Assembly (NCBI GenBank): GCA_030018055.1
Contig: JASEGN010000002.1
Location: forward strand, 1 to 43,373
DNA length: 43,373 bases
Direction: 5' to 3'
DNA from: Candidatus Aenigmatarchaeota archaeon
GTDB taxonomy: Archaea > Aenigmatarchaeota > Aenigmatarchaeia > CG10238-14 > SCSR01
Notes under the pieces: model-generated
What the model saw: only the letters and a program-made list of their open reading frames with translations
Database searches by the model: none
What the model was told of the DNA's origin: nothing
Made by a program: the position numbers and the translations under genes
Part shown: one piece after another, positions 24,991 to 35,360 of the stretch
Numbering within the stretch: position 1 is the stretch's first letter
Layout: every line of letters starts with the position of its first letter

Positions 24991-25746
24991 ATGATAGATT
25001 CTCATTGTCACCTAGAACAAAGGGACTTTGACAAAGATAGAGATGAGATAATAGAGAAATCTAAGAAAGAATTAAAAGCTGTAATTACATGCTGCGCTCA
25101 TCCTAAGGATTTCAACTTAACGATGCAAATGGTTGAAAAAAATAAAGGATTTATCTTTGCCACAGTTAGTATTCATCCTTTATATATAAAAGAAATTACT
25201 GAGAGAGAAAAGGATGAGTTTTTAGATTTAATTAGAAAAAATAAGGATAGAATAACTGCATTAGGTGAGCAAGGTCTTGATTATTTCGAAATAAAAGAAA
25301 GTAAATGGCGACAAAAACAAAAGGAACTTTTTATTGAATTTATTAATTTGTCGAAGGAATTGAATCTCCCTCTAGTAGTTCATGCTAGAGACGCTTTTGA
25401 AGATGCAATAAAAATCTTAGAGCAACAAGATGCAAAAAATGTTTTGATGCATATGTTTGGTGCATATCATTTATTAAAACGTGTGATAGAAAATAATTGG
25501 TTTATTTCTCTCAACACAATAATTTTGCGAAGCAAAAAACATAAAAAAATTACAAGAGACGTACCCTTAGAAAAATTATTAACAGAAACCGATTCACCTT
25601 GGCTAGACCCTGCAGGAGGTAGAAACACTCCTCTAAATGTAAAAATAGTAATAGAAAAAATATCCGAAATAAAAAAGATGCCTCAGAATCAAGTTGATGA
25701 GATAACAACACAAAATGCGATAAGGTTTTTTAATTTACATCTTTAG
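24991..25746 (+). CDS. tatD: TatD-family metal-dependent hydrolase/DNase
   Basis: 251-aa ORF with MIDSHCHL.., ..VVHARDA.. and ..TETDSPWL.. motifs. Confidence 0.85.
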
Positions 25747-28370
25747 CTTAACTTATATCTTAAGAAAGCTCCAATTCCACCCAATTCCTTAAATTGAACA
25801 CCTTCCCTTGTATCTGTGGATACAAATTCGATTCTTGTTCCGAATTTTTTAGCTGTTTCTATGAATTCATCAACCAACTCTTTAATCTCTTTCACAGCCA
25901 TTTTCTCACCACATCTTTCACAAATTTGCTCATAAGCTAAACTCATTCCAACTTTCATTTTCTTCTCTCCACATTTACATGCAAGCCTTACTTCAACGAC
26001 ATCCAATGCATCTGAAATTAGCAGGGTATCAACAGCTCCAGCATTAAGCGCATTGACAACATCATCAATTTTATATGATACCTTCCCACCTATTTGTATT
26101 TCTCGAAGGAAATTTCCGAGTAGCCCTTTTTCTTTTGCTATAGATGCTTCTTTTAATAAATCTTGAGCTCTACCAACGAGTTCCTCTAAACCATATTCAC
26201 CTGTATAGCTGGTATCCTTTAAGCCAAGCACCTTATTCTTTATTTGGTAATGTAGGTAATCTTCCTTGAGAAGAAGTTCTTTTATATAACCTGGACCACC
26301 GATAATAACCCACTTGAGTTCCTTTTGCTCTAAAAACAGTTTCGACGCAATTTCTCCAACCTTTGTTAAAAATTCGTGGATGGCATCCTCTCTAATTCTA
26401 TCATAACGTTTTTGTGAATTATGCACTAATATACCATTAATGAAGAAAGAATAATAGTCCGGAATGTAAAGGTCGTAAAAAATTCCAGTTGGTTTGATCT
26501 TTCTTCTTTCTTTTACTACAACTTGAATTAACTGTGAATTCAAAATTTTAAGAAGTTCACGTAAAACAGTTTCGCTATCTTTTGTCAATTTTCGCTTTCT
26601 TTCGAGTAAAAATTTCAAAACTTCTTCTCTCAACTCATTTTTAATATTCTTTCGCTCCAATTTCCAAATTGTATACACTGAAGCTCCAACAGCTTGTGTA
26701 ACATCTTTTTGTCTCAATCTTAGGAGTTTTCGTAGATATTTAATATTACTTCCATTCTTCTTCAAAGAGTTGATTCTTTTAATAAGAGGGAGAATTATTC
26801 TTTTGTAGAAAACAGGATAACTCATATTTCGTGTATCAGTAAAAAAATTAGAAACTTTTGTGAAATATTGCTTATTCAAATTAATACTTTCTATTTTTTT
26901 TCGCACTAAACTTCCAAGGATAGGGACTTTATCCACATGAAAGATGTAATTTCTTTCAGCTACGAACTTTCTTAATCTTAATTTTTTATTTTTTGAACTA
27001 AAATTAATTTTTTTCCAAAATTCTCTAGTATAAAATGGATTTGTTATCTGCAAGTTATATCTCCCAAATTTATCCGCTTCACTTATACTAGAAACTATAC
27101 CTAACTTTAATAACAGTAGCTGCAAAGTGCATATTATATTTTCATTAGAAAGTCTTATACAAATCTTTCCTTGAGAAATGTAACCTTCAGCATCAAAAAG
27201 ACCTCTTAGAAAGTAGCATAGCCATTTTCCAGATAATTTTGTTAGATTTATTGGTATTTTTCTATCTTTTCTTGTACCTAACAATCCTTGGAAGTTTTGT
27301 AAAACAAATCTAACAACTTTGATATCATAAACTCTAATCTCATAAGTATTCTTTTTTTTCAAAATTCTCGGTTTTTTCCTTAGATTTTTTTCAATCAACT
27401 TGCTGTAAAAAGATGCCAACTGAAAATCTTTCTCATAAGCAATTATTCTATTCCCATCTAAAGTTCCATCACCAAGAAGATAACCAAGAATCTGACACAT
27501 TTCTTTACTTAGAGAAGATAAATTGCATTTTATATCACTTTTCTTTAAGGCAAGTAGTCTATCACCCACTTCTAAATCCTCCACAAATTTTTCTATTATA
27601 CCATTTTCGGTCAAGACAAAAATTTTATGTTCGGGTGAAGCGATTAGCCTGAAAGTTGGTTCTTTAGTTATTATTTCATAAGCTCTTCTAACCTTTCTTT
27701 TAAATATTTCATGTGGATTGGTGAAAGTTTGTTTGAAGTTGCTAAAGGAAAAAGTTAAAACTTTATTATTTTTGTCAAGAAATTTTACTGGACAGATAGC
27801 ACCATTTTTTAGTTGGAGAAGGGATTCTTCGTGTAAACACATTCCACCTTTTACCGTCTTGCTTGGAACAGTAGACACTAAGTGCTTTAATGGCTCTATA
27901 GCTTTCCCTTTTAATAGACCTATGTTAGCTTCCCTGGTATCGAGAACAACTAAACCATAGACCTCTTTTTCCTTTATCATCTCTTCCAAGGGTTCTAGTA
28001 CGAAAACTTGATCACACCAATACATCTTTGTACTCATCCTTTCTGGAGGTTCCAAAGACCAAAGTCTTATATCGGTCTTACCTTCAACCTCAGAAACATT
28101 ACCACAAAAAACAATCAAACCATTTGCAGGAGTTTGTTTAAAGAGTTTTAAATGTGAAATAATCTTTTCAAGTGCATCCAAAACATTCTTTCTAGTTGTT
28201 TTTGATTTGATGTTTTGTGCAGTGGATTTTTCCTGGGTTAACTGGTTTATAATCTCGACTAGATTAAATCCAGCTGGAACATAAACTGAGACCAGCTCTG
28301 TGTGTCTTCCCTTAATTTTTTCCAGTTCTTTCAAAAGCTTCCTTAGCTTTAGCTTTTCCCTCTCTTCCAT
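25743..28370 (-). CDS. prf1: peptide chain release factor aRF1 (exteins 177 + 224 aa) carrying a 474-aa intein
   Basis: 875-aa ORF with the NIKS motif ([13 protein letters not shown]) and YxCxxxF (YWCDQVF). The extein junction ..[10 protein letters not shown] | [11 protein letters not shown].. lies in the GGQ loop. Confidence 0.85.
26418..27839 (-). mobile_element. intein with LAGLIDADG homing endonuclease inserted in the GGQ loop of aRF1
   Basis: It starts [13 protein letters not shown] (Cys1) and ends ..GILVHN, followed by +1 Ser. The LAGLIDADG motifs are [11 protein letters not shown] and [11 protein letters not shown]. Length is 1422 nt (474 aa). Confidence 0.85.
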
Positions 28371-35153: not shown

Positions 35154-35360
35154 ATGCCGGTTGCAAAGAACTTGTTAAAAATATTAGCATGCCCAAAATG
35201 TAAGGGCGATATTGAAGAAAGGGATATGTTTATAGTTTGTAAAAGCTGCAAGCTAGCGTATCCTGTTCTGGATGGTGATGTTCCGGATATGCTCATAGAG
35301 GATGCCTGGAAGCTAGAGGAAGCTAGGAAGCGTAGATTTAAACATAGCTTAAAATTATAA
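35154..35360 (+). CDS. Trm112-family small zinc-ribbon protein
   Basis: 68-aa ORF. LLKILACPKCKG...CKSCKLAYPVLDGDVPDML is typical of Trm112/UPF0434. Confidence 0.7.
   Translation: MPVAKNLLKILACPKCKGDIEERDMFIVCKSCKLAYPVLDGDVPDMLIEDAWKLEEARKRRFKHSLKL

Follow-up and report, generated by a model that had tools for sequence, protein, structure and literature searches.

An aRF1 gene of an Aenigmatarchaeota archaeon with methionine in place of the GGQ glutamine and an intein in the catalytic loop

The stretch of DNA considered here, called the window in the following, comprises 43,373 nucleotides from the metagenome-assembled genome (MAG) of a small DPANN archaeon of the phylum Aenigmatarchaeota, the assembly of which amounts to 966 kb in 125 contigs and is 85% complete. 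On the reverse strand of the window, at 25743..28370, lies a gene of 875 codons plus a TAA stop that encodes a precursor of the archaeal release factor aRF1, the only aRF1 found in the assembly. The precursor is interrupted by an intein, and all of the features of the gene given below are on this same strand. The N-extein (amino acids 1–177, 27840..28370) contains domain N and the first half of domain M, as far as the catalytic loop. The motifs NIKS (amino acids 53–56, 28203–28214) and YxCxxxF, here YWCDQVF (amino acids 117–123, 28002–28022), are intact in it, as had been stated in a preliminary description of this DNA. The N-extein ends with the codons GGT GGA ATG (27840..27848), that is, Gly175-Gly176-Met177, where Met177 (ATG, 27840–27842) takes the place of the Gln of the GGQ motif and is at the same time the −1 residue of the intein. 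The intein itself, of 474 amino acids (178–651, CLHEES...LVHN), covers 26418..27839 between Met177 and Ser652. The C-extein (amino acids 652–875, 25746..26417) then starts with S-Q-K-R-Y-D-R (26403–26417), in which Ser652 is the +1 residue (codon TCA, 26415–26417) and Gln653 the +2 residue, and continues with the remaining part of domain M and with domain C, including a zinc ribbon of the form CxCG...CxxCG (25908–25979).

The precursor scores 433 bits on the aRF1 equivalog model TIGR03676, the cut-off of which is 234.7, and the Pfam domains eRF1_1, eRF1_2 and eRF1_3 are each found above their cut-offs, together with Intein_splicing and LAGLIDADG_3. The match to TIGR03676 is split in two, with model positions 1–173 ending at 27840 and positions 174–402 starting at 26417. 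The predicted spliced product has 401 amino acids and the loop KGGM-SQKRYDR. When the exteins are joined, they can be aligned gaplessly with Halobacterium aRF1 (4af1, E 2e-80) and likewise with human eRF1, such that the loop kggMsqkryd is paired with KGGQSAQRFA in the former and RGGQSALRFA in the latter. Since the break in the hidden Markov model (HMM) match and the gapless pairwise alignments fix the register, Met occupies the Gln position, while the two Gly residues of the catalytic tripeptide are kept. The intein boundaries, the insertion site and the GGM sequence after splicing, all of which had been proposed in the preliminary description, are thus confirmed by the split of the HMM match and by the alignments. 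A wrong alignment register, which could have overturned that proposal, was checked for, and the gapless alignments leave Met in the Gln column. An AlphaFold2 (AF2) model of an intein-free allele with 89% identity to the present protein has a mean predicted local distance difference test (pLDDT) value of 90.7 and matches both 4af1 and 5lzt, with a template modelling (TM) score of 0.83 to the eRF1 of 5lzt. In this model, a long helix begins at the +2 residue, right after the loop, and the +2 and +5 residues are one turn apart on the same face. Apart from the Gln of GGQ, all the properties tested are those of an aRF1. Within the window, TAA, TAG and TGA each close long open reading frames, which means that all three stop codons must be read.

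To place the Met in context, 151 genomes were taken evenly across Aenigmatarchaeota and the loop could be read in 148 of them; 85 were found to have a residue other than Gln (GGW, GGM, GGY, GGF or GGA, called non-Q below) and 63 to have GGQ. Eight further relatives bring the set to 156 loops. A tree was built from the exteins after masking of the loop columns. It groups every one of the 90 non-Q rows in a single clade of 92 rows, with a support of 97 in the Shimodaira–Hasegawa-like approximate likelihood ratio test (SH-aLRT). The remaining two rows, G102 and G126, have GGQ and belong to one family. Constraining the non-Q rows to a single clade is not rejected (p 0.46 in the approximately unbiased test), and one origin of the non-Q state is therefore sufficient. 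The basal families have GGW, and the family of the window and its neighbours have GGM, while GGY, GGF and GGA occur at rare tips; within the clade, GGW is basal and GGM derived. The canonical loop has Ala or Ser at +2 and Phe at +5, and here also the non-Q loops differ: Gln occupies +2 in 85 of 93 non-Q loops versus 5 of 61 GGQ loops, and Tyr occupies +5 in 84 of 93 versus 8 of 61. The loop has changed as one unit, from Q to W or M at residue 3, from A or S to Q at +2 and from F to Y at +5. No other column of aRF1 was found to separate non-Q from GGQ proteins; outside residue 3 and +2, the F-to-Y change at +5 stands alone. The +2 Gln appears to be favoured but not essential, as its state changes 7 times on the tree within the non-Q clade and eight non-Q genomes read GGWSA or GGMSA, with no Gln anywhere in the loop. 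GGQSQ forms are present in neighbouring GGQ families. In the literature searched, we found no paper on a natural non-Q aRF1.

Among representatives at 50% identity outside the main clade (P0358, P0364 and P0332), further deviating loops were seen: GGE-SQ in a protein without NIKS that is possibly a paralogue, GGA-SQ in a protein with NIKS, and GGS followed by an intein and SA. Gln may thus have been lost more than once in DPANN archaea.

We now consider the intein. The residues expected of a class-1 Hint domain are all present, namely Cys1 (Cys178, 27837–27839), the block-B His in SPEH (amino acids 245–248, 27627–27638), the terminal His650-Asn651 (26418–26423) and the Ser at +1, and the Pfam model Intein_splicing matches with 59 bits (cut-off 35.8). 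The homing-endonuclease core (27183..27491) has two LAGLIDADG motifs, the first being ILGYLLGDG (27465–27491) and the second located at 27183–27212, both with the acidic residue kept, and scores 56.7 bits on PF14528. Further towards the C-terminus there is a weak helix-turn-helix (HTH)-like region, resembling MqsA and XRE (26595..26801); in many close homologous aRF1 inteins, a clear XRE-type HTH (PF01381) is found at the same place. The insert is related by sequence to PI-PfuI (1dq3) and to the archaeal TFIIB and VMA inteins, and its guanine-plus-cytosine content is 28.8%, versus 36–37% in the flanking exteins. We infer that the precursor splices itself by means of Cys1, the block-B His, the terminal His-Asn and the +1 Ser, because the host gene is essential and present in a single copy, and an insert in the catalytic loop that did not splice should be lethal.

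More than 160 inteins (163 tallied) were found at exactly this site in the aRF1 proteins retrieved, the closest relative of the present one having just 54% identity, and many of those in relatives have shrunk to mini-inteins of 137–146 amino acids. The residue preceding them is M in 80 cases, Q in 65, W in 14, F in 2, and Y and S in one each. Among the 156 loops, 26 genomes carry the intein, 20 of them non-Q and 6 GGQ. That the intein is mobile is supported by the host extein tree, on which 22 carriers require 19 gains or losses. The family to which the intein belongs is thus old, diverse and mobile, and accepts many different residues at −1. The preliminary description does not count aRF1 among the classical intein hosts; this is true of the literature searched, where we found no paper on aRF1 as a host or on an insertion following residue 3 of the GGQ loop, but the sequence data show otherwise. 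The intein is accordingly of an ordinary class-1 LAGLIDADG type, in a host and at a site that are unreported in that literature.

It is important to point out that the Met is independent of the intein. In all of the 40 nearest genomes the loop is GG[M/W/F/Y]-S, whether the intein is present or absent, and most of them lack it; the comparison of orthologues with and without the intein, which had been suggested as a check, hence shows non-Q loops either way. Among the closest intein-less public homologues (116 read by motif pattern), 112 have GGM, 4 have GGF and none has GGQ. In the set of 156 loops, 73 of the 93 non-Q genes have no intein, and residue 3 is identical in all 11 phylogenetically independent pairs of intein-bearing and intein-free genes. 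In the nearest intein-free allele, which is 86% identical at the nucleotide level and 89% at the protein level and shares its upstream neighbour with the present gene, the empty site is AAA GGA GGG ATG|AGT CAG, that is, GGM-SQ.

A comparison with this empty allele also reveals that the +1 Ser codon is TCA with the intein and AGT without it, which is a two-step switch, and that 5 of the 24 bases around the homing site differ between the two alleles. These differences could reflect co-conversion or target-site immunity.

Next, we examined whether the gene is the sole release factor. In the 85%-complete assembly, TIGR03676 matches only the two halves of this gene, and the second, GGQ-bearing aRF1 for which a search had been proposed was therefore not found there. 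Likewise, neither Pelota (TIGR00111) nor an RF-1/ArfB-type domain (PF00472) was found in this genome at that completeness, and queries with the VLRF1-like protein and the mini-Pelota of relatives gave no matches in it beyond the present gene. In the phylum sample, 149 of 151 genomes, many of them 90–97% complete, have one aRF1 gene. The non-Q genes score 430–507 bits on TIGR03676, like the GGQ genes, their branches are not elongated, and Gly-Gly is invariant. Since the gene is in single copy and under purifying selection, peptidyl-tRNA hydrolysis at stop codons by a GGM aRF1 is indirectly supported.

Some observations on related factors were made along with these searches. In four genomes of the family of the window (G007, G014, G021 and G023), Pelota is a mini-Pelota of 224–236 amino acids with eRF1_1 and eRF1_3 in which the central domain is wholly missing, while neighbouring families (L174 and L175) have a normal Pelota of 342–365 amino acids. 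Two genomes of one genus in family f21 (G066 and G127), each about 90% complete, have no aRF1 even at E 1e-3 but only a Pelota-like gene of 339 amino acids; both carry Mtq2, and the missing aRF1 may be an assembly gap or something odd.

We now turn to Mtq2, which together with Trm112 methylates aRF1/eRF1 (PMC7708063). At the cut-off of the Mtq2 model TIGR00537 (87 bits), a match is present in 56 of the 63 GGQ genomes versus 1 of the 85 non-Q genomes, and this single non-Q match is borderline and lacks the NPPY motif. The weaker matches in non-Q genomes have no [ND]PP[YFW], save for one NPPF protein of the MTS type with 62 bits. In contrast, the three GGQ genomes that lie inside or beside the non-Q clade (G102, G126 and G063) keep an Mtq2 of the NPPY type. 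Overall, Mtq2 is present in 56–58 of the 63 GGQ genomes and in practically none of the 85 non-Q genomes. In the genome of the window, Mtq2 was not found at 85% completeness. The loss of Gln and the absence of Mtq2 are a co-distribution, not a statistical result.

Trm112 is the activator subunit of Mtq2 and of other methyltransferases. A Trm112-like zinc-knuckle protein of 68 amino acids (CPKC...CKSC) is encoded in the window at 35154..35360 on the forward strand, and is thus retained in a genome where no Mtq2 was found. Trm112 is also kept in many non-Q genomes, and a loss of Trm112 together with Mtq2 was, given these copies, rejected. The retained Trm112 presumably serves another methyltransferase.

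On the basis of these results, we consider it likely that the gene encodes a single, working aRF1 in which a hydrophobic residue replaces methyl-glutamine, and which in addition carries an unrelated mobile intein. Of the three possibilities raised in the preliminary description, a working GGM factor is the only one that survives, with its catalytic competence deduced from the sequence data. The following scenario can be put forward. A mobile class-1 intein with a LAGLIDADG endonuclease has inserted between residue 3 of the loop and the Ser, and would splice out to give the 401-residue aRF1. Independently of it, a phylum ancestor with GGQ-S-A/S-x-R-F would have changed to GGW-S-Q-x-R-Y, followed by a change from W to M in the order to which the window belongs and, occasionally, to Y, F or A. 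For hydrolysis, the Gly-Gly turn, which is invariant, and the main-chain NH of residue 3 would still be required, while the bulky hydrophobic side chain would assume the packing and water-selecting role of N5-methyl-glutamine. Mtq2 would thereby have become dispensable and then been lost. The +2 Gln and +5 Tyr, being on one face of the helix, would probably position the loop or the water, without being essential. A hydrophobic residue 3 is a plausible stand-in for methyl-glutamine because work on bacterial release factors credits the hydrolytic chemistry to the main-chain amide of the Gln, whereas its side chain and the N5-methyl group pack the site and select the water (PMC4691834, PMC6742477). 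The same work describes the conformation of the Gly-Gly pair as unattainable by other residues (PMC4691834, PMC6742477). With somewhat less assurance, we also favour the wider reading that a large clade of Aenigmatarchaeota terminates all of its translation without a Gln at the canonical loop position, some members having none in the loop at all, and that W, M, F or Y mimics methyl-glutamine, which has allowed Mtq2 to go.

Three other explanations can be dealt with on the grounds of the evidence above. A sequencing or assembly error, or a wrong register, comes to mind since the sequence is from a MAG, but the same codon state recurs in more than 100 independent assemblies and both the HMM and the pairwise alignments put Met on the Gln column without gaps, which leaves this explanation with hardly any credibility. 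A change driven by the intein, in which Met became the −1 residue so as to favour splicing at a cost to the release function, had been one of the earlier suggestions. It is true that the −1 residue of an intein influences splicing rates and that Met is this residue here. However, the majority of the non-Q genes is intein-less, the intein-bearing and intein-free pairs are unchanged at residue 3, the empty allele already reads GGM-SQ, and the same intein family follows Q, M, W, F, Y and S; even an intein-bearing ancestor would leave the long retention of the residue after the loss of the intein unexplained. We thus consider this explanation very improbable and, on this distribution, refuted. A further earlier suggestion was a paralogue without release activity, in which case the GGM protein would read stop codons or stalled ribosomes in a Pelota- or hibernation-like role and another protein would hydrolyse the peptidyl-tRNA. 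The textbook criteria indeed predict inactivity without the Gln, and the genome is 85% complete with no Pelota found in it. On the other hand, no aRF1 besides it was found here, nor any besides its counterpart in about 85 non-Q genomes; it keeps NIKS, YxCxxxF and Gly-Gly, and its equivalog score is that of a full aRF1. Moreover, the searches of this genome yielded neither a VLRF1 nor a second eRF1-like gene nor an RF-1/ArfB-type domain, VLRF1-like genes occur in just 2 of 41 relatives, and all three stop codons are in use. A non-releasing factor is accordingly improbable, and the earlier suggestion is not supported.

The main competing explanation is a shift of register, according to which the catalytic Gln has moved two residues downstream, such that Gln653 at +2 does the job of the GGQ Gln and Met177 is a spacer. 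The strong preference for Gln at +2 in the non-Q loops would follow from this, and the GGQSQ forms in the neighbouring GGQ families could be the intermediates. Furthermore, the Vms1-like factors of archaea and actinobacteria, aVLRF-1 and acVLRF-1, have been reported by Burroughs and Aravind (2019) to have GG-x-S-Q, with a tiny residue before the Gln, as their catalytic motif (PMC6514570), and VLRF1-like proteins of two relatives have almost the same loop, KGGYSQARFQRIRE. However, the eight genomes with GGWSA or GGMSA have no loop Gln that could have moved, and the 7 changes at +2 within the non-Q clade indicate that its repeated loss is tolerated. In the AF2 model, the +2 residue is the first of the long helix and not at the tip of the loop, and although a spacer could be anything, residue 3 is limited to W, M, F and Y plus one A. 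We therefore regard the register shift as unlikely, yet as a contender to be taken seriously. The present protein is not itself a Vms1-like factor: it has the full aRF1 architecture, and PF18859 gives only 20.8 bits on the C-extein (cut-off 27.1), so that the resemblance to VLRF1 is one of loop motif and not of membership.

In two of the 41 relatives (G013 and G015), acVLRF1-like, that is, Vms1-like, proteins of about 240 amino acids were seen, with the loops KGGYSQARFQRIRE and KGGSSARRFQRIRE, respectively. The former differs very little from the loop found in the aRF1 of relatives, and the latter also has no Gln.

Returning to our preferred reading, a working aRF1 with a hydrophobic residue 3, a number of points have to be set against it. 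Peptide release by a GGM or GGW aRF1 is here a deduction from gene sequences, and reviews call the GGQ Gln essential and universally conserved. All genomes considered are incomplete MAGs, the present one being at 85%, so a second factor may have been missed. The comparison of Gln loss with Mtq2 loss comprises only 2–3 independent contrasts, with which significance is unreachable, and the link between the two may rest on a single evolutionary event. Finally, the strong bias towards Gln at +2 (85 of 93 versus 5 of 61) fits a shifted catalytic Gln about as well as it fits a helper role.

The 23S rRNA was also inspected for compensating changes, by means of a specific pattern in the peptidyl-transferase centre (PTC), the region being assembled in just 2 of the 151 genomes; the genome of the window has only a 5′ fragment of 23S. 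In one GGW genome (G079, contig C78), the PTC segment reads GGGUACAGAACGCCG versus the usual archaeal GGGUUCAGAACGUCG, which would be an apparent U2585A. U2585 is a universally conserved nucleotide of the PTC. This reading rests on one 2-kb contig of a 1.9-Mb MAG and may be due to contamination, and the only other non-Q genome with the PTC region (G111) is canonical. Two more genomes, G003 (L200) and G151 (L204), have a 23S-like motif GGGATAACAGGC beyond which the sequence is unrelated and no PTC motifs follow in the next 260 nucleotides. An intron or insertion in the rRNA at the PTC may be the reason, but the motif may also have matched by chance.

As for the significance of these results, recent papers call GGQ universally conserved, and one of them defines aeRF1 by its presence. 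A rule of this kind, by which having GGQ separates aRF1 from Pelota- or Balon-like paralogues, would misclassify the genes described here in annotation. To our knowledge, it is standard teaching that no release factor in any domain of life departs from the Gln of GGQ, and the N5-methylation of this residue is described as shared by all three domains. For about 20 years it has been debated whether the side chain of this Gln serves in catalysis, in selecting the water or in packing, and the evidence we know of has so far come from engineered mutants only. A natural, clade-wide replacement by W or M in the sole release factor, along with the loss of the methyltransferase, would constitute a ready-made evolutionary experiment. 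If our reading is true, it predicts that GGW and GGM, with or without the +2 Gln and +5 Tyr, should support archaeal or eukaryotic release, and that Mtq2 should be unnecessary for it. That aRF1 joins the list of intein hosts is a more ordinary point than the change of the loop. The aRF1 inteins, occurring in full-size and mini forms beside very different −1 residues, may nevertheless serve intein engineering.

It is instructive to compare the present gene with the systems that are known. With the canonical aRF1/eRF1 (TIGR03676; 4af1, 3agk, 1dt9, 5lzt) it shares the same three domains, NIKS and YxCxxxF, the zinc ribbon and the single copy, as well as the Gly-Gly turn, which is invariant and precedes Ser and the R-x-x-R helix. 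It differs from them in residue 3, which is Met (W, F or Y in relatives), in the +2 Gln and +5 Tyr, in that no Mtq2 was found, and in the intein. With aVLRF-1 and acVLRF-1 (PF18859) it has in common the central domain of the aeRF1 superfamily, and their GG-x-S-Q loop matches the spliced GGMSQ. Those proteins, however, lack the domain that recognises stop codons, and the ribosomes they act on are stalled or split, whereas the present protein is a full aRF1 equivalog, and the +2 Gln is dispensable in several relatives. The intein resembles the archaeal LAGLIDADG inteins PI-PfuI (1dq3), Thermococcales VMA and Methanocaldococcus TFIIB in having a class-1 Hint domain split by a two-motif LAGLIDADG endonuclease, in being inserted where an essential gene is most conserved, and in its sporadic distribution. 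It is set apart from them by its host aRF1, by the extra HTH-like module and by the reduction of many of its relatives to mini-inteins.

The closest laboratory precedents for the loop are the bacterial RF1 and RF2 in which the GGQ Gln is substituted or unmethylated (Shaw and Green 2007; Santos et al. 2013, as summarised in PMC4691834), and in which the chemistry is likewise attributed to the main-chain amide. Those variants are engineered, have an unrelated fold and are impaired in vivo, whereas the replacement described here is natural, fixed in a clade and found in the archaeal/eukaryotic fold.

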